A stretch of 64,000 nt of DNA from an uncultured Planctomycetota bacterium (GTDB taxonomy: Bacteria; Planctomycetota; Planctomycetia; Isosphaerales; Isosphaeraceae): assembly GCA_963845755.1 (NCBI GenBank), contig CAWJTV010000041.1, positions 672,001 through 736,000 of the forward strand, written 5' to 3'. Under the pieces are notes generated by a model. That model searched no databases. It had not been told where the DNA came from and worked only from the letters and a program-made list of their open reading frames with translations. The position numbers were made by a program, and so were the translations under genes. Numbering within the stretch: position 1 is the first letter of the stretch; each line of letters starts with the position of its first letter. This document shows positions 1 through 56,223 of the stretch, in pieces.

Positions 1-1255
1 GCCGATGCCCGCAAGAACGAGTTCCTGGCCATGCTGGGCCACGAGCTTCGTAATCCCCTGGCACCGATCCGCAACGCCGTGCGGATCATGAAACACCACG
101 GCATGGACAACCCCGACCTCAGTTGGGCGCCGCGACGTAGTCGACCACCAGTTGCACCAGCTCGGCCAGTTGGTCGACGACCTCCAGGAGATGTCCCGGG
201 TGGCCGGCGGCAAGATCCGGCTCAACCAGGAGCCGGTTGACGTGGCGTCCATCGTGATGCTCGCGGTCGAGACCAGCCGGCCGACCATCGACGTGCATCG
301 CCATCGCCTGTCGCTCGCCTTGCCTCCCGGCCCCGTTCTGGTCGACGCAGACCTGAACCGCATGGCGCAGGTCCTTTCCAACCTGCTGAACAATGCGGCC
401 AAGTACACCGAGGACGGCGGCCAGATCCGCCTGGGGGTCGCGGTCGACGGAGGCGATGTCGTCTTCCGCGTCCGCGATAACGGCGTGGGCATCCCGCCCG
501 AGATGCTGCCCCGGGTCTTCGATATGTTCGCCCAGGTCGGCCATTCGCTGGACCGCGCCCAGGGCGGGCTGGGTCTCGGCCTGAACCTGGTGCGGAGCCT
601 CACCGAGATGCATGGGGGCTCGGTACAGGCTCGGAGTGACGGAGCGGGTCGGGGGAGCGAGTTCCTCGTCCGGCTCCCCGTGCTGACCAGGGTTCAGATC
701 CAGGCCCGAGCCGATCTCGGCCCGCGGTCCGATCCACCCGGGCCGGTCCGCACCCGCCCGCGCACCCGTGCCCGACTGCACAACGCGATTCCGGACCGCG
801 CCCTCGATCTCGAAAATGGGGCGAGCGCGGACCTCCCTTCGCCCGCACCTTCGCGCCGCGTCCTCGTGGTTGACGACAATGCCACCGCCGCGCAGAGCAT
901 GGCCTTGATCCTCAAGCTCGAGGGATACGAGGTCCAGGTCGCATTCGACGGCGTCTCCGCGATCGATGCAGTCCGATCCTTTCATCCCGCCGCGGTCTTG
1001 ATGGACATTGGTCTGCCGGGCCTCGATGGACTCGAGGTGGCTCGACGGATCCGCCAGGACGACGAGCTGAGCTCCGGAATCGACCTCCTCGCCGCTCTCA
1101 CCGGCTTCGCCGAGGACGAAGCTCGCGACCGCTCCGAGCAGGCCGGTTTCGACCATCACCTCGTCAAGCCGGTCGACCCCGAAGCCATCCTGGCTCTGCT
1201 GGCTTCCCTCGAATGGACGCGGGCGGAACAGACCCAGACCGCCGCAGCACTCTAG
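1..1255 (+). CDS. Hybrid sensor histidine kinase/response regulator (5' truncated by the window; frameshift near 130)
   Basis: H-box [20 protein letters not shown]-box [16 protein letters not shown] and GGLGLGL G-boxes, C-terminal REC (VLVVDDN...[10 protein letters not shown]...KPV). Joins ORFs 31..240 and 152..1255. Confidence 0.92.
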
Positions 1256-1257
1256 CC

Positions 1258-1304
1258 GCAGGGTGGTTCGAACGAAACGGATCGCGTCGTTCGACCCACC
1301 CTAC
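1258..1304. repeat. GTAG-type REP-like inverted repeat between convergent genes
   Basis: Arms GCAGGGTGGTTCGAACGA (1258-1275) and TCGTTCGACCCACCCTAC (1287-1304), 2 mismatches. TCGACCCACCCTAC recurs at 56568-56581. Confidence 0.65.
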
Positions 1305-2657
1305 TCGGGATCGATGCCCGATGACCATTCGGCCCTCCGGCGCTCCATTCGCGCGACGATGTCGGGATGCTGGGCCGCGACGTTCGTCGTCTCCGACGGA
1401 TCGTCGCGGAGGTTGACGAGGAACTCGCCCTGGATCCGTTCGCCCGGTGCGCTTCGGGTCGTGTCGACCACGTCGTGGAGCAGCTTCCAGTTGCCCTCGC
1501 GCACGGCCCAGCTCGTATCGAACTGCCAGTGCAGGACGTCGTGAGGCGTCGGCGCCTCGGCCGAATGAATCACGCGGACCAGACTCTTGCCGTCGATCGG
1601 GAATGTCGGCGTCGCGACGCCGCACAGCTCGGCGATCGTCGGCAGCCAGTCGCAACCGTGGGCAACTTGATTGCGGACCTCATTCTGCGGCAGGTGCCCC
1701 GGCCAACTGACGATCGCCGGCACGCGGATGCCTCCTTCGAACAGGCTGTACTTGGCGCCACGATATCGGCCCGCGCTGCCGCCTCCGTAGTGGTGCGCGC
1801 TCCTCGGTCGAGTGGCCGTGGTCGGACTGGACGATCACGAGCGTGCTTTCGCGCAGGCCCAGTGCATCGACTTCGGCGATCAGCCGGCCGATCCGCTCGT
1901 CCATCGTCGAGAGGAACGCCGCGTACAGGTTGCGGGGGTATTTCAATTGGGCGTAATGCTCGAGCCACTTCGGGTCGCCCTGATAAGGATAATGCGGCTC
2001 GTTGATCGCGAAATAGAGGAAGAACGGGCGGTCCTTGTTCCGTCGCAAGAACGAGACGCCCTCTTCGACCATCAGGTCGCCGAAGAAGCGGCCGGGTGCC
2101 TGGACCTCGCGGCCGTCGCGGTTCAGGTCGTGTCGGTTGGGACCACTCCAGTAGTAAAAATGAGAATAATTGTCGATACAACCTCCCATGTGGCCGAACG
2201 AGCTGTCGAAGCCCTGTCCCAGAGGCATGGTCTCGGGCGAATAGCCGAGGTGCCACTTGCCGACGTGGCCGGTGGTGTAGCCCGCGGTCTTGAGCATCTC
2301 GGCGATCGTGATCTCCCGGCTCGGCATGCCGGGCTGGCCCGCCACCGGTGATGCGTTGGCCGGCATCCCCGCGCGCACGGGATGCCGCCCCGTGAGCAGG
2401 CCGGCCCGCGACGCCGAACAGATCGGCGCCGCGGCATAGAACTGAGTGAATCGCACGCCCCGACGTGCCAGGGCGTCGAGATGCGGCGTCGCCAGGTCCG
2501 TCGCCCCGGCGATGTGCAGGTCGACCGTCCCCTGGTCGTCCGTCACGATCACGATCACGTTGGGTCGAGCCAGGTCGGCGGCGGTCGCTTGCCATCCGAT
2601 GGCGACCGGACCACAAAGGCCGGCCAGGGTTAACAAGACTCGCAGGGCGTGAGACAT
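1301..2657 (-). CDS. Arylsulfatase-family sulfatase with signal peptide (frameshift near 1793)
   Basis: RPNVIVIVTDDQG, formylglycine motif CSASRAGLLTGR, GKWHLG, SDHG. GAKYSLFEGG and the C-terminal NLRDDPSETTN continue in the shifted frame. Confidence 0.93.
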
Positions 2658-2958
2658 TGCGGGGCCTCCTTCAACACGGGCGCAATGGGCGATCGAGCGT
2701 GCGGAGCTGTCTTTCGATATCACGATCCGCCCTCGTGAAGTCGTCGTCAAGACGAATGACAGACCGGGGGCGCGGATCTCCGCTCGCGTTGAACCTCGAT
2801 GCTCTCGATTGTGCGCTCGCATGTGGCACACAGTTGCCAAAGTCGCCCATACAATGTGAGATGGAGCCATCGGCCAGCCAGCGAGACCGAGAGGCTCCAG
2901 GGTCCAGTCCGACGGCTCCGGCGTGATCCGCAATGATGGGGCTGTCCTCGGGGGGAGA

Positions 2959-4179: not shown

Positions 4180-4885
4180 GCGCCAATCCACCTCTCGAGT
4201 CGAGGGGACATCGCAGAGTGCGCGCGATCGCGCTCCGTATCGCGGCCATCGTGGTGGCCCTCGGCCTGTGGTTCTGGACCCAGTCGCTCATCGGCGCGCG
4301 GGGCTTCCCCGAAGGTGGCCTGGGCGATGGCCTGCACCAACTCACCGCAGGCGTCCATCACTGGCTCCAGGAGGTCCCCGCGCGCGCAATGCGCTCCTCG
4401 TGCTCAGCTCCCTGGTCATCGACCTGGTCGGGATCTTCCTGTTGACCCGAAGCATCTTCGGCCCGACGATTCGCCCGTTCCTCGGCTTGCTCATCGTCTT
4501 CGCACTCCGGCAAACGATGCAGGGACTCACCGCGCTGCCACCGCCCGAGGGAATGATCTGGAACTATCCCGGCGTGCCGTCTTTGCTGGTGACCTATGGC
4601 ACCGCCACCGACCTCTTCTTTTCCGGTCACACGGCGATTGCGGTCTGGGGCGGCCTCGAGATCGCCCGGCTGCGTTTTCGGGGTGCCGCGGCACTCGGCC
4701 TGCTGGTGGCGCTTTTCGAGGCGACCACGGTGATCATCCTCCGCGCGCACTACACGATGGACGTCTTCACCGGAATCGTGGTGGCGCTGCTGGTGAACGC
4801 CTACGCCGATCGTTGGGCGCGACCGATCGATCAGTGGTTCGATCGCCTCATTTCGCCCTCGGCGACAGGCAGCGCGACGAAATGA
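4176..4885 (+). CDS. Sphingomyelin-synthase-like/PAP2 membrane phosphotransferase (frameshift near 4388)
   Basis: ATGA overlap with the acyltransferase. Several TM segments, motifs DLFFSGHT and RAHYTMDV. Confidence 0.8.
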
Positions 4886-7333
4886 GGCACACCCACCTCC
4901 TTGCGAAACGGCGGCGGCTGCGTGGCGTCGTCGCTATTGCCCTGGACCTCCCGATAGCCCTTCGCGAGCGAGGTGTCGATCAGGTTGCTCGCGAAGTCGA
5001 GGAGCCCGATGTGCGGCGGCCGAGGTGCGAGGCTGAAGAGCATGGCTTGCTCCCGGGTGCGGACGTCGGTGAGTTGCGCCTGTTCGTAGAGGTGGGTGAG
5101 TGCCGCGGCGATGTTCTCGCCGAAGCTGCCGCGCGGTACCAGTTCATCCGGATCGGCCTGGATCAGGATGATGTGAGTCGCCCCCCAGAGGACCGCCGCT
5201 TCGATAGGGCTCCTGTGTGCGAAGCTGCCGTCGACGACCTCGGTGTTGCGTCCGGCGCTGGGGAAGTCGCGGAGGACCCGGGCCGGGAATACCGGGTAGA
5301 TTGAACCGGAGGCCATCAGCGCGTCGAGGAGGAGTTCCGGCCGGCCCGCCACCGCGACCCCGCGGGTGCTGAAATGAGGCGGCTCGCTCGTCCGTCCGGC
5401 CGACGCCCAGAAATACAGGTCCGACGGTAACTCCAGTCCCGGCTCGCCGAGTACCGAACCGGTCAGCACCAGGTCGCGCGTGAGGAGGCCGTCACCGATA
5501 ATCTGGCGACTCACCATCTGGAACGCCTCCGCCCGCTTCGTCGCGTCGCCGGCGAAGGGGACAGGCACCTCCGGCCGTCCTTCCGCCGCGCCGCTTCGCG
5601 GCCACTAGCTGGGAGAAGCGATCGAACAGAGTATCCTCGATTCCATAGCCCTCGGAGAGGGTCAACTCGTAGGCGAGGATGGTCCAGGCCTGGAGCACCG
5701 GGAGCACGACGATTCCCGCCATCGACGCGGCCCGCACCAGCCGGCGAAATCGCACCAGCACAGGCCGGCCCTCGGCACCTGAGGCCCGTAGAGCGAGTCC
5801 CGCCGCGCCGGTCGCCAGCAGGATCCAGCCCGCCGCCCTCTCCGCCGAAGGTCAGCCAGAGGTAGAGCCGATGGAGATCGGGTCGCGGACCCAGCGCTCG
5901 CCACGGGTCCCATGGCAGATGTGCGAGCAGCACCTCCGCCGCACCGGCGATGAGGCAGAGGATCCAGCGGCCGAGGTGGGTCCGTTCGTGCCCGGCCGAT
6001 TGGCGGCGGTGGCAGATCCAGGAGAAAACCAGGAACTGGAGCGACGCGAACCACATCGCCAGGTTCAACCGCACGGGGAGCGCCGGACGGATGATGTCGC
6101 GCTGGTCGAGGGAGCGCCAGGCTGTCGCCATCTCCTGGTAAAGCTCCGGCGAGCCCGACATCCCCATCGCGACCGGCAGGGCATTGATCGCGCCCCCCGA
6201 CGTGCCGACGACCAGCGAGATGTCGATCGAACTCTCGCCGGTCTGTTGCCGCAGCCGGGCGAGCTTCTCCTCGATCGCGCGGATCGCTCCGACCTGGTAC
6301 GAGCACTTCGCGCCGCCGCCGGAGAAGACCACGGCGAGTCGCAACGGCGCCGACTGCGATCGGGCGTAGTGGACCAGGAGGTCGCCCAGCTCTTCGAGAT
6401 CCAGCCGCATGAGCCGGTCCGGCGGTGGAGCCCCTGTCGTGGCGAGCCAGGCCCGCACCGTCGTGTCCCCGTCGCGCAGGAGGGGTCGGCAACGAACGAA
6501 GCCCCGGCCCCGGCTGGAACGGCGGCGCGGGCAGCAGCGTTCACCGCGTTCCTGAGTCGGTCGAGCTGCGGGATATCCGCGCGGGCGATCAGGGCGTCTC
6601 GCGGGATTCGCAGACCGGCGAGCGTCGGCAGGTCGACCTTTCGGAGACCTGCCATGCTGAGGTCGTCGAGAATCCCATTCCAGACGAATGCGACCGCGTC
6701 GTTCGCGTCGTCCCGACGGAGCGCACGAACGGAGTTGGTATGAGAATGGGTGTATCGGGTGCGACTCTCCGGGACGGGAATGCCGGCGGCAGCCAGAGCG
6801 ACCCGCGGCGCCAGCGCGCCGGATACGGAGAGCGGATCGACGAAGAGGAGCCGGCCCTCGCCGCGGACCAGCAGGCTCCGCAGGTCCTCGGCCGTGCGTA
6901 CCGGGGACTGCTCGCGGACGACCGCGACGCTCAAAGACGGCGACGGGTCCGGAGGCTCCTTCACCGAGGCCAGGTACTCCCAGCGGACGCCGCCACCGAC
7001 CTCGAGGGCCTTGCCCAGCAGGGCGGGGCTCACGATCGCCAGGTCAACCGCGCCCGTCTCGAGCCAGTGCCAGAGATCGGCGTATGTGCCACGGGCGACC
7101 GTGAACGGCTGCGAGATCCCCGCGTCCGCACGCAATCCGATCAATGCCCGCTCCACCGACCTCAGCCCCTCTTCTGCGTCCTGATATGCCAGGATCGCAA
7201 TCCTCAGATGGTCCGCCGGCCGTGCCTCGTCCGCCGCGACTCGGCCAGCGAGGGCGGCGAGCAAGATCCCGAGCGCCAGGGCTCCCGGCTTTCTCCCAAA
7301 GTCCAGGGGAGGGGTCGATTCGGAGATCGTCAT
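4831..7333 (-). CDS. PhnD/SsuA-type substrate-binding domain fused to a membrane-interrupted patatin-like phospholipase (3 frameshifts near 6465, 5833, 5588)
   Basis: N-terminal hydrophobic leader. FVDPLSVSGALAP and HSHTNSV binding-protein motifs. Patatin SGGGAK, GTSGG, then TM helices, ASGSIYPVFP and DGS in successive frames. Confidence 0.75.
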
Positions 7334-7491: not shown

Positions 7492-8836
7492 CTACTGGCT
7501 CTTCCTGCCGAAATGATGATCGGCGAAATTCATGTAGGCTTCCCAGTCATCGGAGGTGACGTCATGTTTACCCGGCCGTATGCGGTAGCCGATCGTGCTT
7601 TTGACCAGACTGTTGACGGTGGGCTTGGGCATCTCGGTGGCGGCCAGTCCGTCGGTTCCCAGCAGTCGGTAGACGGGATCGGCGGCTTTCGCCGACAGGA
7701 ACTCGCCCTTCGGGTCGGCCCAGAGGTCTTCCTCGGCCGAGCAGACCAGCACGGGCCTCGGGGCAATCAGGGCGATCAGCTCGTGCTGGTCGACGGGCAG
7801 GCGATCCTCATGACTGCTGAACTTGTGGAAGTTGGAGCAGAACCAATGAGGGAATGACGTATTCAGGTGCGCGACGGTCTCGCCGAAGATGCGGCGCGAG
7901 AGCGCCGCACCGCCGGCGCCCGAATTGTTCGAGATCACGATGGCGAACCGTGGGTCCTGCGCCCGGCCCAGAGCGCCGTCTTGCCGAGGCGCGAATGGCC
8001 CATAAGGACGACTCTCTTGGCGTCGATCTCGGGCAGGGTTTCGAGGTAGTCGAGCGCCCGGCTGAGGCCCCACGCCCAGGCCCCGATCGAGCCCCACTCG
8101 CCGGCCTTGGGCCGTTGCTGGCCCTGGCGGTAGAAGATCGGATGGACTCCGTTCTGGAACCCGTCATCGTAGTCGGGGTCGATGTCGCCGTAATACGCTG
8201 TCGCCAGGGCGTAGCCGCCATCGATGATCCGCTCGACCGGCCAGTTCGACGCCTCGGAGCCACGGGTTGCTTCGGTCGCCCGATGGTCCGTGATGCCCTT
8301 CTGCGGGTTGTTCCGCATCCACTGCTTCGACAACGTGATTCCCGGATCGGGCTGGACCGCGTGGTTGCCGCTGAAGTTCAGGCCCACGAAGGCCGGCGCT
8401 CGGTGCTCGGGACCCGCCGTCTTCGGGAGGTAGATCAGGAGGTCCATCCGGGGACCGTCCGGCTGGTCCGTGAACGCGATCGTTACCTCGCGGCGGATGG
8501 CCTTGCCGCCCAGTGCCGCTTTGTCCTCGGAACGGACCCGGTACGTCGGCTGGATCGGCCTGGACGGTTCCGGCACGGCGCCGTAAACCTCGGTCGTGAA
8601 GAGCCGCAGCAGCTCGGGCCGGCGCTCGTCGAGCCACATATCACGGCTTGTAACCAACCGTCCATCCGCCATGACGAGCGGGGCGGGCAGCCTGTACGTC
8701 CCGGCCTTGCCCTCGTCATAGTTGACGTCCGGCCGCTGGGCGACCGCGATCGGTCCGAGAAAGGTCAGCAAGGTCAAGGGCGCAAGAATGCGAGAGCGGA
8801 GGCCGCCGGACCTCGGTCACGCTGAGTGCGGATCAT
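7492..8836 (-). CDS. CE15-type (glucuronoyl/acetylxylan) esterase (frameshifts near 8780 and 7962)
   Basis: [13 protein letters not shown], nucleophile elbow [43 protein letters not shown]. Signal peptide from ATG 8836 with GGAG RBS. Confidence 0.88.
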
Positions 8837-8842
8837 GGCGAT

Positions 8843-11611: not shown

Positions 11612-14600
11612 TCACTGTAGCGTCAGGCCGACTGCGGGTTCGGCGACGGACTCCAGGACGTCCCGAACGAGCTTCCAGATGTCACCGATTCGCGCGGCCT
11701 CCGCCCTGGCCCTGTGGAGATTGCCCTGATGGGCCACATCCTCCAGCGCCTGACAGGCGGCGGCCAGGTCGTCCGCGCCGATGGTCCGGCTGATTCCCTT
11801 CAGCCCATGTACTGCGTCCGCCAGCTTGCGGCCGTCGCCGCGCTGCACGGCGTCCGCGATGTCGTCCAGGCATCGTGGGCTCGATTCCAGGAACGACCCG
11901 GCCAGCTCCCGGGCAAAAGCGTCGTCACCGTCGCAAACGTCGCTCAACCTGGTCAGGAGCTGATGTCGAAGGCTGGAGCCGAAGTCCTCATTGCGACCCG
12001 CGTCGCTGATCCCCCCCAGGTCGTGGAGCCCGAGCTCTCCAAGGGCCGCCGCGAGGTCGGCCTGGCGGATGGGCTTGGCCAGGTAGCCGTCGAAGCCGGC
12101 CGTCAGGCAACGTTCGCGGTCGCCTTGCATGGTATGGGCCGTCAGTGCCAGGACCGGCAACCGCCGTCCGGTCCCGGCCTCGCCGGCGCGAATGGCCCGG
12201 ACCGCGTCGAAGCCGTCCATCTCGGGCATCTGCAGGTCCATCAGCACGACATCGAAGCCGCCAGGCCGGCGCCAACCTTCGGCCTCCAGGGCCCGCAGTG
12301 CCTGCACACCATCCGACGCCACCATCACGGAGTGCCCCAGGCGTTCGAGCATACGAACGGCCACTTTCTGATTGACGGGATGATCCTCGACCAGGAGGAT
12401 TCGCAGCGCCCCGCCGGTCCAGCCCGAGTGGCTGGCATCCTCGGCCCGGTCCGGTGCGATCCGAGCCTGTTCCGGTCGGCTGCGGACCGTCAGGGCCTTC
12501 ATCAGCGCGTCGAACAGTTCCGATTGGCGCACCGGCTTGGTCAAGCAGGCCGCGATCCGCAGAGCCTGGCAGGCGGAGAGTTCCTCCGGCCGGCCTGCCG
12601 ACGTCAGCAGCAGCACATGGACTTCGGCGATCCGCGGATCGCTGCGGATTCGACGGGCCAGGTCGAGTCCGTCGATCTCCGGCATCATTCCGTCGAACCA
12701 GCGCGACGGCGAACGGGCGGCCCCGCCCGATGGCAGCCCATAGCGCCTCCAGCGCCGCGGTCGCACCGTCAACGGCGGTTGGGTTCGCGCCCCAGCCCGC
12801 CAGAATCTCCACCAGGATGAGGCGGTTGGTGGCATTGTCGTCCACGATCAGGATCCGCATCCCATCCATTTGGGGGAAATCTAACTCGGTGCGGCCGACC
12901 GCGACGGCATCCCGGGGCGCGGCTGCCAACAAGGTCGTGAACCAGAACGTGCTGCCTCGTCCCAACTGGCTGTCAACCCCAATCTCTCCACCCATCATCC
13001 GGACCAGCTTCGCCGAGATCGCCAGGCCCAGGCCTGTGCCGCCGAACCGCCGGGTCGTCGAACCGTCGGCCTGCTCGAACGGTGCGAAGATCGTATTCAG
13101 CTTGTCGGGGGGGATGCCGATCCCCGTGTCGGCGACTTCGAAACGCAGCGCGACTCCCTCGATTTGTCCTTCTTCCCGGGATACGCGCATCACCACCTCG
13201 CCGCCCTCGGTGAATTTGATCGCGTTGCCGACCAGGTTGACGACGACCTGGCGCATCCGGCCGACGTCCCCGACCACGGTTTCGGGGACGTCCGGCGCGA
13301 TGCGGCAGGCCAGCTCCAGGCCCTTGGCGTGCGCGCGCAGGGCGAGCGTTTGCAAGGTCTCGCTCACCGCCTCCCGCAACTCGAAGGGTGCCGGGTCCAG
13401 GCTGAGCTTGCCGGCCTCGATCTTGGAGAAGTCGAGGATATCGTTGATGACCGTCAGGAGTGAATCCGCCGAGCTCCTGACCAGGTTGAGGTACTCGCGC
13501 TGGCGGAGGGAAAGCTCGGTGTCGAGCGCCAGTTCGGTCATTCCGATGATGCCGTTCATCGGCGTGCGGATCTCGTGGCTCATGTTGGCGAGGAACTCAC
13601 TCTTGGCCCGGCTGGCGGCCTCGGCAACCAGCTTGGCCTTCTCGCGCTCCTCCTGGGCCTGCAAGCGCACGATCCCCGAGCGCCATGCTGTCCGCCACGA
13701 CGCCCAGCGCCTTGTGTGCGGCGTCCGAGAGCGGCCGGCGGGCGAACAGCTCCGTCACGCCGACCAGCCGGTCTTCGATGATCAATGGGTGGCCGGCGAA
13801 GGCGACCATCCCTTCCCGCCTCGCCCACTCGGGGTCACTGATGCGCGGGATCCTCCCCGACGTCGTTGGTCAGGTGGGGCCGGCGCTGCTGGGCGATCAA
13901 GCCGATGTGGAATTGACCGAGAGGCTTCCGCACCCGCGGTCCATCGAGGAGGTCGCAAGTCCCGGCACTGCCCCTCAACTCCAGCACGGCTTCGGCCTCG
14001 TCGAGTGTCCAGATGCGAGCGCATGCGGCATCGACATGCTGGACCATCGACTCCGCGCAATGCTGGAGGATGCCGCGGACATCGTCGCCGCGGGTCAAGG
14101 CGATCGCGATGTCCGCGGTCAGGGTGGTCAGTCGCGCCTGCTCGAGCAGCGCGGCCTCCGCCGCCTTCTGTTCGGTCAGATCGCGCAGGTAGGCGTTGAA
14201 GACCGGAGGGCCCGACTGCCCGATGACGCAGACCGCCAGCTCGATGGGAAACTCGCTGCCGTCGGCCCGCATGGCCGGGACCTCGATCCGTTTGCCAAGG
14301 AGTGTCACCGCACTCGTGTCCAGATAACGCTGCCAACCGCGATCGTGGGCCGTGCGCAGTGCGGGCGGCACGATCAACTCGTTCAAGGGCTTGCCGAGGA
14401 TCTCGTCGCGGCGGTAGCCGAAGATCCGCTCCGCCGCCGGGTTGAACTCGATGACGCGGCCCGCGTGGTCGGCCGTCACGATCCCATCGAGCGCCACCTC
14501 CACGATGCTCGCCTTGCGCGCCTCGCTCTCGCGAAGCTCGGCCGTCCGCGCCTCGACCTGGCGCTCGACCTGCCCGTGCAACGCCTCGAGGGCGGCCTGC

Positions 14601-16684: not shown

Positions 16685-17970
16685 ATGCGAATCTTCATCT
16701 CGGCGGGAGAGCCCAGCGGCGACCTGCATGCCGCAAACCTGATCCGATCGCTCCGCCGGCGGCTCCCGGACTGCGCAATTCGTCGGCTTCGGGGGTGCGA
16801 GAATGGCGGAGGCCGGCGCGGACCTGCTCTATCCGCTGGTGGACCTCGCGGTGATGTGGTTCTTGAACGTGCTGCTCAACCTGGTGACGTTCATCCGGCT
16901 GATCTTCACGGCTGATCAGTACTTCCGGGACGAACGACCGGACGCGGTGGTACTCATCGATTACCCGGGTCTGCATTGGTGGATCGCCCGTCGTGCCAGG
17001 GCGCGGGGTATCCCCGTCTTCTACTTCGTACCGCCACAGCTCTGGGCCTGGGCCGGTTGGCGTGTGAAGAAGGTCCGCAAGTACGTCGATCAGGTCCTGT
17101 GCAGTCTGCCGTTCGAGCCGGCCTGGTATCAGGCGCGGGGCGTCGACGGGGCAGTCTACGTCGGCCATCCCTATTTCGACGAGCTGGCCGATCGGCCCCT
17201 GTGTGAGGGCTTCTTGGCGGAGCAGCGCAGGCAGCCCGGAGACATCGTGGCCATTCTACCCGGCTCGCGCACTCAGGAGCTAATGCGCAACTTACCCGAC
17301 ATGCTCCGCGCTGCAAAGGAGTTGGCAAGCCGGCGCCCGGGCGTGCGGTTCGCGATTGCCTGCCTGCACGAGCGGCACAAGGTGCTTGCAGAACGGATCA
17401 TCGCCGAGTCGGGTATTAATCAAGGGTCTAATCCGGAATCCAGGATTCCGGATCCAAAGGTCGAGGTCCACGCCGGGCGCACGCCCGAACTCATCCGGCT
17501 GGCCCGCGTGGCCTGGGCGGTTTCCGGGTCTGTCGGGCTCGAGCTGATGGTTGAGGGCCTCCCGGCGGTCGTACTGTACAAGGTCAAGCAATTCGACCTA
17601 TGGGTGGCGCGGTGGTTCATCAAGGCGAAATACATCAGCCTGGTCAACCTCCTGGCCGACACCGAGGTGTTCCCCGAGTATCTCACGTGGCAAGACGCCT
17701 CGGGTGAGATGGCCCGCTGGGCCGAGGTCTGGCTTGGCGACGCGGAGGCATATGCCCGCGTGACCGGCGGCGCTGTCGGCTTTGCGGTCGCGGGTCGCCC
17801 AGCCCGGTGCCTCGGACCGAGCGGCCGACCACATCGTCGGATGGCTGGATCAGCATCGCAGGACGACCTCGGCAACGATTGCAGATCGCGCGACCGGCGG
17901 CTACCTCGGCCCTCACGACCTTGGCGCTCGACCGGAGCCAGCCGAAGGGCATGGGCCGCATCGCAGTTGA
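16685..17970 (+). CDS. lpxB: Lipid-A-disaccharide synthase (frameshifts near 16772 and 17768)
   Basis: MRIFISAGEPSGDLH, IDYPG, PPQLWAW, LPFE, VGHP, LPGSR, SLVNLL, PE. Confidence 0.93.
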
Positions 17971-29869: not shown

Positions 29870-29919
29870 GGGGTAGACTCCGTGTTGACACGATCGAGTG
29901 AATGCGATTCCAACAGGTT

Positions 29920-31249: not shown

Positions 31250-31469
31250 GGTGATGGAACTCTTCAAAGACCGAGTCAGACTCTTGGGCCACTCCGGATC
31301 GGTGCCCGCTTTCCGCCTCGCGGATGTCATATTCCCGGAAAGCCTCGTCGGCAATCTGGGCGAGAGTCTCCTCATCCAGACGAGGCCATTCCATTTCGGC
31401 TGTGTGCCACAGCGGCTCGCAGTCAGGTTGTTGATACGAATCTTGACCTTCAGCGGGATCGGTCATCAT
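31242..31469 (-). CDS. Small acidic hypothetical protein (possible orphan antitoxin-like)
   Basis: 75-aa ORF overlapping both neighbours, [18 protein letters not shown]. Confidence 0.5.
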
Positions 31470-38219: not shown

Positions 38220-39656
38220 ATGGTCAACCCCGATGTCTACGACAATCCCCTGATCGGCCGATACGCCAGTCCGCCGATGACCCATCTGTGGTCGCCTCAG
38301 GCGAAGTTCTCGACATGGCGGCGGCTCTGGGTCGCGCTGGCCGAGGCCCAGCGCGACCTCGGGTTGACGATCACCGAGGAACAGATCGCGGCTCTGAGAT
38401 CCCAGGTCGATACCATCGACTTCGAGGCAGCCGAGGGGTACGAGCGGCGCTTCCGGCACGATGTCATGGCGCACATCCACGCCCTGGGCGATGCCGCGCC
38501 CGCGGCGCGACCGATCATCCATCTGGGGGCGACGAGCTGTTACGTCACCGATAATGCCGACCTGATCCTGATGCGCGCGGCCCTCCAACTCATCCGCGAA
38601 AAGACGGTTGCTGCGATCGACGCCCTGGCCCGATTCGCCGAGAGTCACAAAAGCTTGCCTTGCCTGGGTTACACCCACTTCCAACCCGCGCAACTGGTGA
38701 CGGTCGGCAAGCGCGCGACGCTCTGGTGCTACGAGTTGATCCTCGACCTGTCGGAAATCGAGCGGCGGATCGCGGAATTGAAGTTCCTGGGCGTCAAGGG
38801 GACAACGGGCACTCAGGCGAGTTTCCTGGAGCTTTTCGACGGAGACGACGCCAGGGTTGACGCCCTGGATCAGCAGGTGGCCGCGGCGTTCGGCTTCGAG
38901 CGGACCTATCCGGTCTCCGGCCAGACGTACTCGCGCGAAGTTCGACGCGCAGGTGCTGGCCGCGCTGGCGGGGATCGCCGAGAGCGCCCACCGGTTCGGC
39001 ACCGACTTGAGGCTGCTGGCCCACGAGCGCGAGGTCGAGGAACCATTCGAGGCTCAGCAGATCGGCTCCTCGGCCATGGCTTACAAGCGCAACCCCATGC
39101 GAGCGGAGCGGATGTGCGCGCTCAGCCGATTCGCGATGGCCTTGCCGGCGGCCGCCGGTCACACGGCGGCGACCCAGTGGCTGGAACGCACGCTCGACGA
39201 TAGTGCGGTCCGCCGCCTGACCGTGCCCCAGGCCTTCCTGGCCATCGACGCGGTCCTGAACCTGTATCTCAACGTCGTGCCGGGCCTGGTCGTCCATCCC
39301 GCGGTGATTTCGCGCCACGTCGCCGAGCAACTCCCGTTCATGGCGACCGAGAACCTGCTCATGGCGGCGGTGCAGGCTGGCGGCGATCGCCAGGATTTGC
39401 ACGAGAGGATCCGCGTTCATGCCCTGGCGGCCGCGGACCGATTGAAGGAGGGGGCCGCCGACAATGACCTGCTCAACAGGATCCGCAACGACCCGACTTT
39501 CCCGCCGCTCGATTTCGAGGGAGTTCTCGACCCGCGCCGCTATATCGGCCGATCGGTCCGCCAGGTCGAGGAGTTCCTCGGCGCGAGGTCGAGCCGATCC
39601 GCCGGCGCTATCCCGACCGGCCTGTCGAGGACCCGAATTCCCTGGTGCGCGTCTGA
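38220..39656 (+). CDS. purB: Adenylosuccinate lyase (frameshifts near 38940 and 39581)
   Basis: [48 protein letters not shown]. Confidence 0.95.
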
Positions 39657-40700: not shown

Positions 40701-41934
40701 TCAGGCGAGGAGCTCGTCGGCCTTGGGGAGGAGCCTGGCGAAGTCGAGCTTATTGGGACAGGCCTGGCGGGCGGCCTCGAGGTCGGCGCCGGTCCAGTTT
40801 TGCGCGGCGGGGTCCATCTGGGAATAGAGCCGGCGCGCCTCGGAGCGGTAGCCGTGGTGCTCGTGGTAGGTGAGGAACCGCGTCAGGTTGCCCAGCTCGG
40901 CCGTCGTGCCGGCGGCCTGGCTGCATCGGCCGTCGCAGGAGGCGCACATCGTCGGGCCCGCGGCGATGCAGGCGTCGCGCAGCCGGTCGATCTGAGCGGT
41001 CGTCATCGGCTTGAAGGTCCGCGCGGCGTCGGCATTCTCGCGGACCTGGTCGGTGTTTCGCATCGAGACGCAGCACGATGCGAAACGCTCGTCGGTCCAG
41101 ATCGCGTGGAGCAGAGCCTGGTAGGGGGTCAGCTTCTTCTCCTTGAGTTCCGGGAGCCTTCGGGCGATCTCCTGGAGATTCACGTTGCCCGCGACTTGTT
41201 TCATCGAGATCAGACCGATGCCGGCCTTGTGGCAAGCATCGAGCGCACGATTCATCGCGTCTTCCTGGGCACTCCAGGGATTGTTCTGGAGCATGATCGC
41301 GTTGACAAACCCGCCTTTCACGGCTTCCTCGAGGATCTCCGGCCGGCGGGGATGATGGGTCGAGAACCCGACGAACTTGGCCTTGCCCGACTTCTTGATC
41401 GCCTCGGCGGTCTCCTTGAATTCCCGGCTGCTCGGCCACTTGACCTCGGTCGTGATGTCGTGGTCGCCCACGGCGTGGAGGAAGATGAGGTCGAGGTAGT
41501 CGGTTTGGAGCTGCGCGAGCCGCTGGTCGAGATTCTTGAGAAGCTCCCGGGGCGAGGCCACGGCGTGATACTTGGTGACGAGGAACAGATCCTTGCGGGC
41601 TTCCGGCATCGTCTTGAGCCAGCGCGCGATCATCGGCTCGGAGCCGTAACTCTGGGCCGTGTCGAAGTAGCGGACGCCGTTGCTCCAGGAATAGCGGAGC
41701 AATCGCTCGCCGCCCGAGCTCCTCCAGGTACCCTGGGTGAGAATCGTCACGTCCACGCCGGTTCTGCCCAGTTTGCGCCGGGCAGCACGGCGGATCCGGT
41801 CGGCTTGGGGACGTCTTGCGCGCGGCGGACGCCGTCTCTGTCAGAGTTGCGGCGACGGCCAGCGCGCCGGCGCCAGCCTCCAGGAATCCGCGGCGGTTGA
41901 TCGGTCGGTACTGGTCCGGACCGTAGTCCTGCAT
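40701..41934 (-). CDS. Tat-exported aldo/keto reductase with C-terminal Cys cluster (frameshifts near 41822 and 41780)
   Basis: NRRGFL Tat motif, FDTAQSY, LVTK, LQTDYLDL, GFSTH, CASCDGRC, CPNKL. Confidence 0.88.
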
Positions 41935-47359: not shown

Positions 47360-49008
47360 ATGGGAAAGGGACAATCCGGCGGCTCATTGCGGCAATTGCG
47401 AGCCCTGTTCGCGGCCGGCACGGCGACGGGGCTGTCCGACAGCGAGCTCCTCGAGCGGTACAGGGCCAAACGGGCCGAGTCGGCCGAGGCCGCGGCAGGG
47501 GCGGAAATCGCCTTCGCGGCCCTGATGGATCGCCACGGAGCGATGGTCTGGGGGGTCTGCCGGCGCGTGCTCGGCGATACGCACGAGGCGGAGGACGCCT
47601 TCCAGGCTACCTTCCTCGTCCTCGTGCGTAAGGCCGGATCGGTGCGGGTGGATGGGTCCCTCGGCCGATGGCTCTATGGGGTCGCCCACCGCGTCGCGCT
47701 TCGGGCGCGGTCCGAATCTCGGCGCCGAGGGTCCGGGATCGGCCGCGTTCCGCCCACGTCGTCCGATGATCCCGCAGGCGACGCGGAACTCGGAGAGCTC
47801 CGCAACGTCGTCGGTGAGGAACTGGACCGGCTACCGGCGAAGTACCGATGCCCGGTCGAGCTCTGCCACCTCCAGGGGATGACTTATGACCAGGCGGCCC
47901 GGCAGCTCGACTGGCCGGTGGCGACCGTCAAGAGCCGACTGACCAAGGGCCGGCTCAGGTTACGGGCGAGGCTGGCACATCGCGGCCTCGCGCCCGGTAC
48001 TGTCGTTGCCGGAATGGCTTCGGTACTCACCCGAGAAGCCCGGGCGGCCGTTCCCCAGCAACTCGTTCGATCCACGGCTCGTGTGGCAACGGCGTGCGCC
48101 CCCGGCGCGTTAACGGCGGCGGTCTTTGATCTTACCGAAGGAGTCCTGAAGATGATGATGTGGGAGAAGCTCAGGCTGGTCGCGGTCGGCACCCTCGTCG
48201 CCGTCGGCCTGACGGCCCAGGCCCTGTCGCAGCAGGCGCCGAAGGATGAGATTCGCGCAGCGCGGCCGCCCCAGGTCGTGGTGCAACCCGCCGAGAAACC
48301 GAACGACAAGCCGGCGGGCGATCGCCGATGGGTACGGAGCCTGTCGAGCGGAGCCCTCATCGAGATTGTCGGGGTTTCCTCCTTTCCCTCCGGACCCGAT
48401 ACCTGGTGGCGTCCCGACGGGACGCCGTTACCGAAAGCGCCCTGTGACCCGGTCGAGCCGAGGATCTCGGGGGAGAACGCCGTCCGTGTTTTGGTTGTGG
48501 TGCGCGAGGCGCGCATTCCCGAGGGCGCCGACCATCAGTGGTCGATCACCGAGGCTCGGGGCGCAGCCTGGGGGCCCGCTCTGCGAGACGGCAAACCTTT
48601 ACCCGATCTGACCGAGATGACGGCCCTGCTCCCGACCGATGCAAGCACGTGCACGGTCCATTTCAAAGTCGCGGCCGGTCCCTGGAAGACGATCCAGAAA
48701 TGGGGGAAGGGGGCGGGCGTATCGGCGGAATCGACGCGAGTTTCATCTTCGGTGACACAATCGCAACCAAGAAGGGGACGACCTTATCGGTCACTCATGA
48801 CATCCTGGAAAAATCCTTGCGGCTCGTCGCGATCGACAGCCAGGGCGAGGAAGTCCCGGGGAAGACCCGGTCGGCCACCTCGGTGAAGGACTTCAGGCAG
48901 ATCGTCGTCGAGTTCGACCAGACCCCCGAGCAGATCAAGGAATTCCGGATCCAGACCCGGACCTATGAAGAGGTTGAGATTCCACGGATCGCTCTCAAAC
49001 GCAAATAA
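47360..49008 (+). CDS. ECF RNA polymerase sigma factor with TM and C-terminal extension (frameshift near 48713)
   Basis: SDSELLERY, HGAMVWGVCRRVL, AEDAFQATFLVL, LPAKYR, TVKSRL, then hydrophobic KLRLVAVGTLVAVGL. Confidence 0.9.
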
Positions 49009-50744: not shown

Positions 50745-50804
50745 GGTCGAGGAATCCATCCCGCACGGCTCGTCGAGATTCTCTTCCAGGGAGCCATCCA
50801 GGTC

Positions 50805-51380
50805 ATGTCACTCGATATCCTCATCATCTACGGGTCAGTCCGCCGCGATCGCCAGGGGATCCGCGGCGCGGTTCATCCTCGAGACCTGCCGGGCGCGGGG
50901 CCATCACGCGACGCTGGTCGACCCCGTCGAGGAGCGTCTTCCGCTCCTGGACCGGATGTACAAGGAATACGCGGCCGGTGCGGCTCCCGAGGCACTCGAG
51001 CGCCTGGCAGGCCGGATCAAGGCCGCCGACGCCTTCATCATCGTCTCGGGCGAGTACAACCACAGCATCCCGCCGGCGCTCTCGAACCTCCTCGACCACT
51101 TCCTGGAAGAGTACTTCTGGCGGCCCTCCGCGATCGTCTGCTATTCGGCCGGCGCATTCGGCGGCGTGAGGGCGGCGATGCAGTTGCGGGCGATGCTCTG
51201 CGAGCTGGGGACCCCGAGCATTCCCTCCTTGCTCCCGGTCCCGCGCGTGCAAGACGCCTTCGACGACGAGGGCCGTCCTCTCGACGAATCCTACCCTAAG
51301 CGCGCCGGCCGGTTCCTGGACGAGCTGGAATGGTATGCCAATGCCCTGAAGGCCGCGCGCAGGCCGGCGTGCCGTATTGA
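50805..51380 (+). CDS. NADPH-dependent FMN reductase (frameshifts near 50865 and 51360)
   Basis: GSVRRDRQG, EYNHSIPPALSNLLD, GGVRA. Corrected C-terminus GVPY*. Confidence 0.88.
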
Positions 51381-51705: not shown

Positions 51706-53444
51706 GTGTTGCAGACGAGACGGAAACCCATTCGACGAAGGGACTCGGCCCTGGTCGTCCTCGTGGTCCTGGTCCTGAACCTGACCGCCTGGCTCGCCGC
51801 TCCCGCGTTCGGGTCCGACCCCTGGGTCGTCTACAAGGGCTCGGACGGGCCGGGCAAGGGGAAGCAGGTCGTCCTGGTCAGCGGCGACGAGGAGTATCGC
51901 TCCGAGGAGGCCCTGCCGCAACTGGCCAAGATCCTCGCCACGCGACACGGATTCACGTGCACGGTGCTCTTCGCCATCGGCAAGGACGGAACGATCGACC
52001 CGAACCAGGGCGACAACATCCCCGGCCTCGAGGCACTTCGCTCGGCCGACCTGATGATTATTGCCACAAGGTTCCGCGACCTGCCCGACGACCAGATGAA
52101 GGACATGGTCGCCTACATCGAATCGGGCCGCCCGATCATCGGCATGCGGACCGCGACCCACGCCTTCAACCTCAAGAGCAAGACCTATGCGGATTACTCG
52201 TGGAACAGCAAGGCGTGGGTCGGCGGGTTTGGCCGTCAGGTGCTGGGTGAGACGTGGGTGAATCATCACGGGCACCACGGCAAGGAGAGCACGCGCGGGA
52301 TGATCGCGCCCGGAGCGAAGGATCATCCAATCCTCCGCGGGATCCAGGACGGCGACATCTGGGGGCCGACCGACGTCTATGAAGCCCATCCGCCCGCCGA
52401 CTGCAAGCCGCTGGTCCTCGGCCAGGTGCTCAAGGGGATGAAGCCGGCCGACGAGCCGGTCGCGGGCAAGAAGAACGATCCGATGATGCCCGTCGCCTGG
52501 GTGAAGACCTACACGGGTAAGTCCGGGAAATCCGCGCACATCTTCACCACCACCATGGGGGCCGCGACCGACCTCGAGAGCGAGGGCACGCGCCGGCTGC
52601 TGGTCAACGCCATCTACTGGGCCGTCGGGCTCGAGGACAAGATCCCCGCGCGGACCGACGTGACTCTCGTCGGCGAGTATCACCCCCTGCCCTTCGGCTT
52701 CAACGGGGCCAAGAAGGGTGTCAAGCCCGAGCATCACCTCGTTCCGAGTGCCGCCCCGCAGGCGGCCGACAGTTCCAGCGCGACGTCCGACCTGGTGTTG
52801 CCGAAAGCTTTCCTGAACGGGACCGGGCCGGGCTGGAAGGCGCTCGGTCAGGACGACTTCGCGCGGGTCAACTGCGACCCCGAGACCTGGACGTGGAGGG
52901 ACGGCGTGATCCACTGCACGGGACACCCGGTCGGCGTGCTCCGCACCAGCAAGCCGGTGACCAACTTCGAGCTGGTCGCCGAGTGGAAACACCTCGAATC
53001 GGGCGGGAATTCGGGGATCTTCGTGTGGGCTCCGGAGAAGGCGCATCGAGGGCATCAAGCCGAACTCGTTGCCGCGCGGCGGTATCGAGGTGCAGATCCT
53101 CGACCACGGCTACAAGGACCGCTACGAGAAACGCTCCGGCAAGAAGGCGACCTGGTTCACGACCAACGGCGATGTCTTCGCAGTGGGAACGTCGAAGATG
53201 GCCCCGTTCCCGCCCGTGTCACCCGACGGCAGCCGCAGCTTCCCCCGGAAGAACCTGAGCAAGGGCATCGGCGAGTGGAACCACTATTATGTACGCGGCA
53301 TCAACGGCGAGGTCCGGCTCTGGGTCAACGGCGAGGAAGTCTCGGGCGGCAGCGGCTGCGAGCCGCGCACGGGGTATCTCTGCCTCGAGTCCGAGGGCGC
53401 CGCCGGTCGAGTTCCGGAACATCCGGATCCGCGAGCTGCCGTAG
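51706..53444 (+). CDS. ThuA-like domain + DUF1080 (3-keto-disaccharide hydrolase) fusion (frameshifts near 53045 and 53401)
   Basis: [21 protein letters not shown], then [40 protein letters not shown]. Confidence 0.82.
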
Positions 53445-53452
53445 GCCATCAC

Positions 53453-53543
53453 GATTCCCGATTCCGGATTCGAGATTCCGGTATCCGGATCCCGGATCCG
53501 GATCCCAGAACGGTGATAATCCGGAATCTCGAATCCGGAATCC
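53453..53543. repeat. Inverted degenerate heptamer repeats (GATTCCG)n / (CGGAATC)n
   Basis: Tandem GATTCC/GATCC units followed by complementary units. Related tracts at about 7410-7487, 17430-17459 and 54846-54909. Confidence 0.7.
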
Positions 53544-53560
53544 GCCCGAGGAGCGATCTG

Positions 53561-54627
53561 ATGTCGATGCCTTCCGATGACCTGGGTCGAACGCCGGTGG
53601 GTCTGGATCCCGTCCCTGGGCGGCCGGACGCCGCCAGGCAGTTGCCGCCATTGCCCGATCACGACCTGGCGCTGAACCTGGTGCGGACCACGGAAGCGGC
53701 CGCGCTGGGCGCGGCGCGATGGGTGGGCCGGGGTGACAAGAACGCGGCCGACCAGGGGGCCGTCAACGCCATGCGGTTGTTCTTCAACGCCGTGCCCATG
53801 GACGGCGTGGTCGTCATCGGCGAGGGAGAGAAGGACGAGGCGCCGAATGCTCTTCAACGGCGAGCGGATCGGCACGGGCAGCCCGCCGGAGGTGGACGTC
53901 GCCGTCGACCCGATCGACGGCACGCGCCTGGTGGCCCAGGGCCAGGCGAATGCCCTGTCGGTCGTCGCCGTCTCGGAGCGCGGCTCGATGTTCGATCCCG
54001 GTCCGTGCGTGTACATGGAGAAGATCGTCACCGGCCGCGAGGCCGCGACGGCGATCGACATCACGGCCCCGATCGAGACGAACATCAAGAACGTGGCCAA
54101 GGCCAAGCGGATGTCGGTCAGCGACGTGACCATGATGATCCTCGACCGGCCCCGACACGAGGAGGTTGTGGACCGCGTTCGGAAGATGGGGGCGCGCGTC
54201 TATCTCCTGACCGACGGCGACGTCGCCGGTGCCATCACGGCCGCCCGCCGCGGCACGGGCGTGGATCTGCTCTACGGGATCGGCGGCACGCCCGAGGGGG
54301 TCGTCGCCGCCGCCGCGGTCAAGTGCCTCGGCGGAGTCATCCAGGGCCGGCTCTATCCCCGCGACGACGACGAGCGCACAGGCCGCCATCGCGGCCGGCT
54401 ACGACCTCGACCGCGTCCTGACCGAGGACGACCTGGTCAAGGGAGACGACATCTTCTTCGCCTGCACGGGGATCACCGACGGGGCCCTGGTCCAGGGTGT
54501 CCGGTTCTTCACCGATGGGGCCACCACCGAGTCGATCGTGATGCGCGGCAGCACGGGGACCATCCGCGTCATCCGCGGCGAGCACCGCGTCGGAAAGCTC
54601 AAGCAGATCTATGGCGAGGAGCCGTGA
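53561..54627 (+). CDS. glpX: Class II fructose-1,6-bisphosphatase (frameshifts near 53848 and 54378)
   Basis: [59 protein letters not shown]. Confidence 0.95.
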
Positions 54628-54673
54628 GCCGCACCTCCTCGACAGCCGGACGTCCCTAGACAAGACTGATGAC

Positions 54674-54847
54674 ATGAAAACGCCCCGCAGACCGCCGTTG
54701 CAAAGATTCCTGCACTTCAGCCTGCGCTCGCTCCTCGTCATGATCCTCGCGGCCGGCCTTGGCGTGGGATGGCCTGTCCGTGGCGCACGGATTCAAATCT
54801 TCCTCCGCAGGATCTCTGCGTCTTCGGCGCATCTGAGAGATCCTTGA
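54674..54847 (+). pseudogene. Truncated fragment of a planctomycete FSLRxLL-leader membrane protein
   Basis: RFLHFSLRSLLVMILAAGLGVGWPVRGARIQ, then an early stop next to a heptamer repeat tract. Confidence 0.4.
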
Positions 54848-54945
54848 TTCCGAATTCCCGAATCCCGATTCCGAATTCCCGAATCCTTCTTCATCCGGAA
54901 TCTTGAATATTGAACCTCGGCTGGGTCGCGGCGTCGCTTCTGGCC

Positions 54946-56223
54946 TCACCAGATCGTCATGGAATCCAGGAAGAGTTGCTTCAGCTCCGCTTCACTCGCG
55001 GGCCGGGGTGAGAGCTTGGTCACGCGGTGTTGCACGATCGTGCCGGCGACCAGAGCATCGGCATCCTCGGCGCGTACCCCACGGCCTTCAGCCCATTGGG
55101 CATACCGGTTTGCCGCATGATGGCGATGATCGCGCCGGCCAGGATCTCGCCCGCGTCTTCCGGGCGCACTCCGGCAACGTCCGCCCCCAATAGCCGGGCG
55201 GCCTCCAGGTGCCGATCGGGATCGGCCTGCGCGGTGAAGCGGAAGACCGCGGGGGAATTCAGGATCACCGACATCCCATGCGGAATCAGCGGCCGACGGG
55301 TGCGGTACCCTGCCGGGATAAAGTCCCGGACCATCCCCGAGACCGGGTAGGACATGCCGTGGGGCAGGTGCACGCCCGCGTTGCCGAATCCGATGCCCGC
55401 GAAGGTCGCCGCCAGGAGCATCGCGCCGCGTGCCTCGTCATCCGACGGATCCGTCGTCGTCCGGACCAGATACGCGCGCGACCATCTCGATCGCCCGCCT
55501 GGCCCAGATGTCGCTGATCGGGTTGGACCCCTGATATGCCGGCCGATGGGCGGGGCTCTCCGGGGCGGGCCGCTGGGAAAACGGCAAGGCGGTCAGAGAT
55601 TCGACGGCATGGCTCAGGACGTCCAGTCCCGCGCACGCGGCGACCTGCGGGGGCACGCCGCGGGTATTGTTCGGATCGACCACTCCCAGCACCGGCCGCA
55701 GGGCACGGTGAGCGATGCCCGTCTTGGCGTGCAGCGGGGTATAATCGAAGATGGCCACGCCGGTCGTCTCGCTTCCCGTCCCCCCCGTGGTGGGGACCGC
55801 GATGAGCGGTTTCAGTGCCCCCGGGACGGGCCTCCCCTTCCCCACCGGGGGATTGACATAGTCCAGCAGCTCCGCAGGATGGGTCGCGTACAGGTCGGCG
55901 GCCTTGGCCGTATCGATGCTGGAGCCGCCGCCGACGGCCACATAGCCGTCGAAACCGCCTTCGACCGCGAAGGCGATCGCTTCCTGAAACGAGCGGTCAG
56001 TGGGCTCGACCTCAACCCGATCGAACAGTACCGCATCGATCCCCGCCTCCCGCAGCGCATCGAGCACCAGCGAGACGGGCTCGGTTCCGGCCAGGTTCGG
56101 GTCGGTCACGACCATGACCCGCCGCGCCCCCCACCGACCCACGTCGTGCCCGATCTCGCGGGTAACGCCGGGGCCGTATTTGATGCTGGAGGTGTCCATC
56201 GTAAAGGCGGATTCCCTGCGCAT
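54946..56223 (-). CDS. Hydroxyacid-oxoacid transhydrogenase (iron-containing ADH family; frameshifts near 55474 and 55071)
   Basis: SSIKYGPGVTRE, VGGGSSIDTAK, PTTGGTGSETT, DVLSHAVES, RPAYQGSNP, GNAGVHLPHGMSY, PHG. Confidence 0.9.

Follow-up and report, generated by a model that had tools for sequence, protein, structure and literature searches.

Thousands of frameshifts that break coding sequence in a large planctomycete genome assembly, here called G000, are real features of that assembly and not biological frameshifts, and they are tied specifically to the tetranucleotide GCGC, both genome-wide and across the family. We regard a modification of GCGC as very probably their cause. The window analysed is the 64,000-nucleotide (nt) stretch G000:C41:672001-736000, and all window positions are counted from its first letter; the assembly comprises 14.27 Mb in 49 contigs and is 87.9% complete. 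Judged by its protein sequences, the organism is a planctomycete of the Isosphaeraceae, because the closest relatives of its SufB are Isosphaeraceae (91-92% identity) and another gene has close homologues attributed by name to Aquisphaera and Paludisphaera. The platform was most likely nanopore and the consensus unpolished, as deduced from the error pattern rather than from raw signal, since the contigs are long yet carry thousands of 1-nt frameshifts.

Frameshifts concentrate at GCGC

The bias was measured in three ways that involve no hand-picking of sites. We aligned 969,777 bases of a sister species, G001, to G000 (454,163 aligned) and used a codon model to assign 293 isolated insertions and deletions (indels) of 1-2 nt to one of the two genomes. 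This placed 77 in G000 and 91 in G001 and left 125 unassigned (82 non-coding, 29 ambiguous, 10 strand switches and 4 neither). Within 8 nt of a GCGC lay 49 of the 77 G000 frameshifts against a background of 10.6% (p = 6e-29), and 45 of the 91 G001 frameshifts against 9.9% (p = 1e-21); GCGC was the top 4-mer at the frameshifts of both genomes. When GCGC in the corrected sequence is counted as well, the numbers become 55/77 and 48/91, respectively. The two genomes are hit at different sites, and the frameshifts are therefore not shared pseudogenes.

A Viterbi frameshift caller was applied to the whole of G000. On two test contigs it recovered 22 of 25 G000 indels to within 15 nt and made no call within 74 nt of any of 33 G001 indels. 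Genome-wide it made 4210 calls, 3823 of them with at least 90 nt of frame on each side, and 1842 of these 3823 (48%) fall within 12 nt of a GCGC, compared with 16.7% at flanking controls. The enrichment peaks sharply at the point where the frame switches and has p < 0.05 on 47 of the 49 contigs. Such a comparison with background had been suggested in a preliminary description of the window made from its sequence, and the enrichment it anticipated is present.

Repeat copies provided rates per site. We examined 54 families with 267 copies (387 kb counted; copies more than 1.5% off consensus were dropped), in which GCGC windows make up 10% of the bases and contain 211 of 293 indels and 280 of 756 substitutions. 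An indel lay within 3 nt of GCGC in 246 of 2998 site-copies (8.2%) and a substitution near it in 231 of 2998 (7.7%), counts in which overlapping GCGC sites can register one event twice. CGCG away from GCGC carried indels in 5 of 1609 site-copies (0.31%) and twelve other control 4-mers in 0.06-0.69%; these rates exclude plain dinucleotide-repeat slippage. Errors occur in all ten flanking contexts of GCGC (4-22%), so that the motif is GCGC itself. The sister, whole-genome and repeat-copy tests thus agree with the preliminary proposal of a genome-wide GCGC modification that causes motif-specific errors, and its view that penetrance is partial also held, as about 8% of GCGC sites carry an indel. 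Its statement that nearly all frameshifts sit at GCGC was too high: this described its own hand-picked list (24 of 29), whereas the unbiased counts (55/77 and 211/293) give GCGC a share of about 65-72% of indels.

Six of seven other frameshift-rich Isosphaeraceae assemblies share the GCGC bias, with calls at GCGC in G001 (127/319), G003 (14/41), G008 (31/79), G009 (5/10), G010 (17/70) and G011 (13/24); G012 shows none (3/24 calls). These relatives other than G001 were sampled at 44-120 kb each. Six further genomes (G017, G392, G344, G375, G358 and G436) gave 0-5 frameshift calls each, and G027, G355 and G414 were left out because the codon model misfits their GC content. Nine long-read loci from Chloroflexota and Actinomycetota, a small control, had no GCGC bias (4/13, background 23.5%).

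Indel sites inside the window

The window contains 584 GCGC sites. The preliminary description had reconstructed about 30 indel sites in it, and for 28 of the 29 named positions a real indel or frameshift is independently supported; for the remaining one, 13848, neither the G001, G008 and G012 alignments nor the frameshift caller gave support. Alignment support, defined as an indel within 12 nt of the position relative to G001, G008 or G012, is available for 26 of the 29 (8780 is ambiguous, as the G001 gaps compensate), and 13676 and 48713 are backed by the caller alone. In the assembled sequence a GCGC is found no more than 7 nt from 24 of the 29, whereas this is true of 14.1% of window positions overall (binomial p = 2e-16). 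Only 48713 and an ambiguous 30551 had been listed as lying off GCGC; most sites are indeed within 7 nt, but there are five exceptions, 19525, 5833, 30551, 33417 and 48713. At 5833 a GCGC is present at the same spot in the sister genome; 48713 was correctly singled out, being a homopolymer error in a run of G. At 12697 and 38940 the error also falls on the second motif described below, GTCGAC, which has gained an A or T.

Frame-restoring letters are carried at 50861, 53045, 53400, 53846 and 55068 by Logan contigs, which come from public soil-metagenome runs (platform not recorded, depth 2-9) and represent relatives of at least 88% likeness, not shown to be the same strain. Public runs were matched to G000 by word shares of 0.05-0.19, from which no habitat evidence was drawn. 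The relatives and the Logan contigs keep the frame, and G000 and G001 differ in their hit sites, which bears out the earlier judgement that these are not real pseudogenes. As had also been reported, sufB and sufD are hit: a break near 33415 cuts sufB in two, and the shift near 30551 joins a SufD-like gene to a rhodanese gene. The sites are listed below with their support.

124..55480, unstranded: span of about 30 consensus errors of one or two bases, mostly at GCGC (alignments and caller)
126..132, plus strand: 1-nt insertion at GGCGCC, frameshift (G001 and G012 alignments; caller at 129)
1793..1800, minus strand: 1-nt insertion adjoining GCGCGC (G001 alignment; caller at 1795)
4380..4389, plus strand: 1-nt deletion in a GCGCGC run (G001 and G008 alignments; caller at 4386)
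5586..5592, minus strand: 1-nt insertion at GCGC (G001 and G008 alignments; caller)
7958..7964, minus strand: 1-nt deletion following TGCGC (G001 and G012 alignments; caller)
12690..12705, minus strand: 1-nt insertion by which GTCGAC, the second motif, reads GTCGAAC; a GCGC is 4 nt away
16770..16777, plus strand: 1-nt insertion (T) ahead of GCGC (G001 and G012 alignments)
17766..17775, plus strand: 1-nt insertion at GGCGC (G001 and G012 alignments; caller at 17793)
19521..19527, plus strand: 1-nt insertion splitting a GCGC (G001 and G008 alignments; caller)
30545..30558, minus strand: two bases deleted where the sister has GCGC; SufD-like gene fused to the rhodanese gene in an open reading frame (ORF) at 29015-31375
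33404..33418, minus strand: 1-nt insertion 9 nt from GCGC, splitting sufB (three relatives; caller)
38932..38950, plus strand: 1-nt insertion that makes GTCGAC read GTTCGAC, with a GCGC on either side (three relatives; caller)
39579..39586, plus strand: 1-nt deletion at GCGCG (three relatives)
41774..41826, minus strand: two 1-nt deletions at GCGC, at 41778 and 41821 (three relatives)
48703..48720, plus strand: G-run frameshift, an ordinary homopolymer error off GCGC (caller at 48720)
50860..50872, plus strand: 2-nt deletion at GGCGCG (G001 alignment; Logan contig)
53040..53046, plus strand: 1-nt insertion (A) after GGCGC (G001; Logan contigs from two runs; caller)
53396..53404, plus strand: 1-nt insertion at GGCGC (G001; Logan contig)
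53838..53848, plus strand: 1-nt insertion 4-5 nt past GGCGCC (G001; Logan contigs from two runs; caller)
54373..54379, plus strand: 1-nt insertion at AGCGC (G001 alignment; caller)
55068..55076, minus strand: 1-nt deletion at GGCGCG (three relatives; Logan contig; caller)
55471..55480, minus strand: 1-nt insertion ahead of GCGCGCG (three relatives)

Short dispersed, partly palindromic intergenic repeats were also seen at window positions 53450-53545 and 54790-54935, with many copies in G000 and G001.

A second error motif

With GCGC set aside, GTYRAAC or its reverse is found at 215 of the 3823 calls against a background of 1.1%, and 200 of these are +1 insertions. In repeat copies, 332 GTYRAC site-copies away from GCGC held 80 substitutions and 11 insertions: an extra A appears after GTYR, and Y/R transitions affect about a quarter of the sites. 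The motif is common to G001 (16/319), while six other family members have 0-1 occurrences each, and GTCGAC is depleted in G000, with an observed-to-expected ratio (O/E) of 0.50. This looks like a genus-level HincII-type system placing N6-methyladenine (m6A), a name and chemistry that we assume for GTYRAC. Weaker error words were noted as well, namely TTCGAA(A), with 18 calls (20-fold excess) and possibly another methylated site, and, in small counts, the AGCT-containing CAGCTG, AAGCTT and GAGCTC, which are possibly further ones.

Modification marks already reported at GCGC

The sources cited in this study were accessible in part, and statements about them refer to those parts. GCGC modification of planctomycetes is not new, because single-molecule real-time (SMRT) studies already report N4-methylcytosine (m4C) there. 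Blow et al. (2016) list for Planctomyces limnophilus the motif 'GcgC' as m4C, 17% detected, with 'Multiple candidates' for the enzyme (PMC4752239); on our reading, the capitals mark the last C. Hiraoka et al. (2022) found GCGC m4C at 74% and 62% in two marine Planctomycetaceae metagenome-assembled genomes (MAGs), with no REBASE methylase match and no gene assigned (PMC8919816), and Hiraoka et al. (2026) report GCGC in all hot-spring Planctomycetota genomes, from communities in which liquid chromatography-mass spectrometry (LC-MS) detected almost no 5-methylcytosine (m5C) (bioRxiv 10.64898/2026.06.24.734251). Among the options raised in the preliminary description, m4C is thus the one that the SMRT literature favours (PMC4752239, PMC8919816). 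The nine motifs given for the Kuenenia methylome do not include GCGC (PMC5854607), and no mention of GCGC was found in the accessible text of PMC13340088. In a search that lay outside REBASE and most subscription journals, we found no paper assigning the planctomycete GCGC enzyme or describing a GCGC error bias.

That DNA modifications cause nanopore errors is established (PMC11610603). Those errors are likewise tied to the methylated motif and persist into assembly; the accessible text of that report stresses C>T and G>A substitutions, whereas in G000 indels are as frequent as substitutions and thousands of genes are broken. A coding-density error screen of a large nanopore MAG catalogue flagged mainly low-coverage, low-GC genomes (PMC12313526). 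The present finding is an artefact of known kind over an already reported mark. It concerns the same motif in the same phylum, again genome-wide, as the planctomycete m4C for which no enzyme is assigned; the published mark was seen by SMRT kinetics, whereas in G000 it appears only as consensus errors, and in Isosphaeraceae. What we add is a candidate enzyme and its class-wide distribution.

A conserved candidate methyltransferase

We propose that the frameshifts are consensus errors from long-read assembly, most likely nanopore, of native DNA from an organism that methylates the palindrome GCGC genome-wide. The mark would most likely be m4C on the last C, a chemistry taken from the SMRT literature, and at about one in seven GCGC sites the base-caller introduces an indel or substitution no more than a few bases away. 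We see the likeliest source of the mark in an orphan beta-class amino-methyltransferase, encoded by a single-copy gene outside the window at G000:C11:714964-715860, a putative Dam/CcrM-like housekeeping methylase rather than a restriction-modification partner, present in almost all Planctomycetia and some Phycisphaerae. That the GCGC modification is m4C methylation appears likely. That this candidate makes the mark seems somewhat favoured, the link being drawn by elimination only, and a vertically inherited, possibly essential orphan m4C methyltransferase marking GCGC in Planctomycetia and part of Phycisphaerae, as a CcrM-like epigenetic system, is a tentative proposal.

The candidate is intact and has 299 residues. 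Its orthologues, mostly single-copy, occur in 19 of 21 relatives and, across the class, in 140 of 151 Planctomycetia, and the best full-length matches are 56-92% identical. Blow et al. described as conserved orphans methylases with orthologues in more than half of a taxon and no cognate nuclease (PMC4752239); with 140 of 151, the candidate is found in more than half of its class. In phylum-wide samples it matches 33 of 301 genomes at E 1e-50. For one match outside Planctomycetia the named homologues are Phycisphaerae; an assignment of the non-Planctomycetia orthologues to anammox bacteria was rejected, given these homologues and two genomes without hydrazine synthase. The ten listed genomes of an anammox family contained no orthologue-level match (best E 4e-46, against <1e-75 for orthologues), and GCGC is likewise missing from the Kuenenia methylome, both of which we count in favour of the candidate. 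Searches of plasmids, phages and the Atlas returned distant generic methylases only. In its protein tree 9 of 34 inner branches are starred, support too weak to test vertical descent. In family f4 (e.g. L196) the conserved methylase lies in frames of about 590-640 residues, often with a two-part match, suggesting an insertion or added domain.

The protein scores 174 bits to PF01555 and has the beta-class order, with catalytic motif IV before the S-adenosylmethionine-binding motif I. Its motifs DPP(F/Y)...DP(F/M)xGS are intact, and D39, P40, P41, D232, P233, G236 and S237 are invariant in 18 of 18 sequences. A structural model (mean pLDDT, the predicted local distance difference test, 74) matches CcrM in Foldseek at E 3e-20 and also M.BceJIV. 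The fold and motif order resemble those of CcrM (PDB 6PBD) and M.BceJIV (PDB 8URK, 9C3U) at about 27-28% identity, and the candidate is apparently solitary and class-wide conserved as these orphan methyltransferases are; the product of CcrM and M.BceJIV is m6A, while m4C is the product proposed for the candidate. It falls far under the cut-off of the CcrM equivalog NF050803 (120 vs 830 bits) and under the YhdJ cut-off too. Upstream of the gene, nine Isosphaeraceae loci carry a sigma-54 activator. No fixed nuclease neighbour was found among the 54 of 83 neighbouring ORFs scanned, a distant nuclease being possible; these 54 included Uma2 once, DUF4058 twice and eight without a Pfam match.

In P. 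limnophilus, Plim_2104 and Plim_3573 are orphan type II methylases without known specificity (PMC4752239). In a P. limnophila transposon screen the insertion index is 0.0054 for Plim_3573 (COG2189), which is classed as essential, and 0.127 for Plim_2104 (PMC10632474). The former index equals 5/920, which fits a gene of the candidate family's usual length. The candidate may correspond to Plim_3573, on presumed orthology; no named P. limnophila orthologue appears among the best 120 matches.

Several observations weigh against the candidate as maker of an m4C mark. G008 has GCGC-biased errors, yet no orthologue was found in this 60%-complete genome, and G012 has the gene (with one internal stop) yet no GCGC bias. 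The DPPF motif and the nearest solved relatives are those of adenine methylases, but cytosine-N4 enzymes such as M.PvuII belong to the beta class as well, and class therefore does not decide the target base. When 7-54 kb of coding sequence was compared for each genome, depletion of GCGC failed to follow the gene in family f3 (O/E 0.61-0.64 without it, 0.28-1.25 with it); in family f5, O/E is 1.07 and 1.23 without the gene and 0.64-0.83 with it, probably reflecting one loss event. The 17% detection of m4C in P. limnophilus (PMC4752239) is weak, as m5C calls often are, the gene common to both GCGC-positive marine MAGs is annotated as nearest to the TTAA methylase M.Mru1279VI (PMC8919816), and the methylase-like Plim_3431 (COG1743) is classed as essential and belongs to a COG that all Planctomycetia sampled there possess (PMC10632474). 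A Plim_3431-type gene was not placed in G000.

Other methylases and alternative explanations

G000 contains four PF01555 genes: the conserved candidate, a PvuII-like gene, a sporadic one and one fused to a ParB-like domain (assigned by eye). The PvuII-like cytosine-N4 methylase (L069:1375-2382 = G000:C11:1112768-1113826) matches M.PvuII at E 2e-126, and CAGCTG is nearly absent from G000 (O/E 0.05), suggesting that this system is active. Genera without the conserved methylase (G355, G386 and G414; L275-L282, L272-L274) share a PvuII-like methylase, possibly a replacement system, and ACGT is nearly absent from G355 and G414 (O/E 0.01-0.14). At the start of one contig (G000:C30:1-8000) GCGC reaches about 20 per kb, compared with 8 genome-wide, and CAGCTG occurs four times; this DNA is possibly foreign or mis-binned.

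The same artefact and the same methylation could come from another enzyme, such as the ParB-fused methylase, a COG1743-type (Plim_3431-like) protein or a gene missing from the 88%-complete assembly, in which case the conserved beta-class enzyme would methylate, for example, TTAA or be silent; we consider this rather unlikely. The essentiality and spread of Plim_3431 and the TTAA annotation described above speak for it, as does the presence of the ParB-fused gene (L071:982-2607 = G000:C27:61722-63341) in G008, where no orthologue of the candidate was found. The ParB-fused gene is confined to its own family, occurring in 10 of 12 Isosphaeraceae relatives (11/21 overall) and none of 8 genomes of other families, whereas GCGC m4C is reported outside Isosphaeraceae; nor was it found in G001, which has the errors. 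DUF1156 methylases occur in only 8 of 21 genomes, and TTAA is absent from the five motifs given for P. limnophilus (PMC4752239).

HhaI and HinP1I are C5 methylases that mark the inner C of GCGC. They and the Helicobacter pylori enzyme M.Hpy99III (m5C) have the same four-base target, and M.Hpy99III is likewise a conserved, mostly orphan methylase. That GCGC carries m5C from such an enzyme, mislabelled as m4C by SMRT, is improbable. The low detection rate in P. limnophilus would fit it (PMC4752239), and substitutions between repeat copies are most frequent at the two middle bases (C>T 18, C>G 23, G>A 22, G>C 19). Unlike in those systems, no conserved C5 gene of this kind was found and GCGC is hardly avoided. 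The single C5 locus of G000 is a frameshifted gene adjoining a SacI-family nuclease, C5 genes are patchy (11/21 genomes), and none was found in G003 or G008 (both incomplete), though both show GCGC errors. The GCGC O/E of 0.93 contrasts with 0.05 for CAGCTG, the target of the PvuII-like methylase, and the hot-spring communities had almost no m5C although all their Planctomycetota have GCGC. The HinP1I family PF11463 matched 0 of 21 genomes, but no control genome matched either, and the HhaI family was not searched. The HhaI-type m5C of the preliminary description accordingly finds little favour.

Its phosphorothioate option fares no better, and phosphorothioation of GCGC by a dnd cluster, or an unusual bulky base, is very improbable. 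A cluster is present at G000:C15:211000-223800, with dndA/B/C/D/E-like genes at 211000-222700 and an HNH gene (dndC exceeds its cut-off at 214408-215706; the dndA/B/D/E and HNH names were assigned by eye), and the error rate is high and indel-rich. The distribution of dndC, however, does not follow the GCGC errors: it occurs in 4 of 21 genomes, including G012, which has no GCGC bias, and was not found in G003, G008, G010 or G011 (all incomplete), which all have GCGC errors. The usual phosphorothioate words are GAAC/GTTC, GGCC and GATC, and GAAC, GGCC and GATC show no error excess in repeat copies (dpdA and ssp were not searched). The suggested search for C5, N4 and dnd genes thus yielded one C5 locus, four PF01555 genes and a dnd cluster, of which C5 genes and dndC do not follow the errors. 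Scarcely credible is an account without modification, in which the base-caller or polisher slips on GC dinucleotide repeats or the frameshifts are real pseudogenes. GCGC is a two-unit tandem repeat and about 30% of indels lie elsewhere, yet CGCG and four other two-unit repeats have indels at 0.06-0.31% against 8.2%, and the small sample of long-read loci from other phyla shows no bias. Each sister genome has its own hit sites and contigs from other runs restore the frame, which argues against pseudogenes.

Implications

The coding DNA of G000 is interrupted by no fewer than 3823 frameshifts, and the GCGC bias is shared by several Isosphaeraceae assemblies with completeness ratings of 60-87%. 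Part of what gene catalogues, completeness scores and reports of 'pseudogenes' show for such genomes is artefact, and motif-aware correction is possible. The value of the finding lies in a warning for long-read planctomycete genomes and in a named enzyme that can be tested cheaply. GCGC m4C has been reported in planctomycetes since 2016 without an enzyme in the literature consulted; there is now a candidate that is near-universal in the class, and P. limnophila is genetically tractable. Planctomycetia divide without FtsZ. Should the candidate gene prove both essential and responsible for GCGC methylation, it would represent a housekeeping methylase of the whole class, one that uses m4C and not m6A, and a GCGC m4C system would be readable from assembly errors alone in long-read MAGs.

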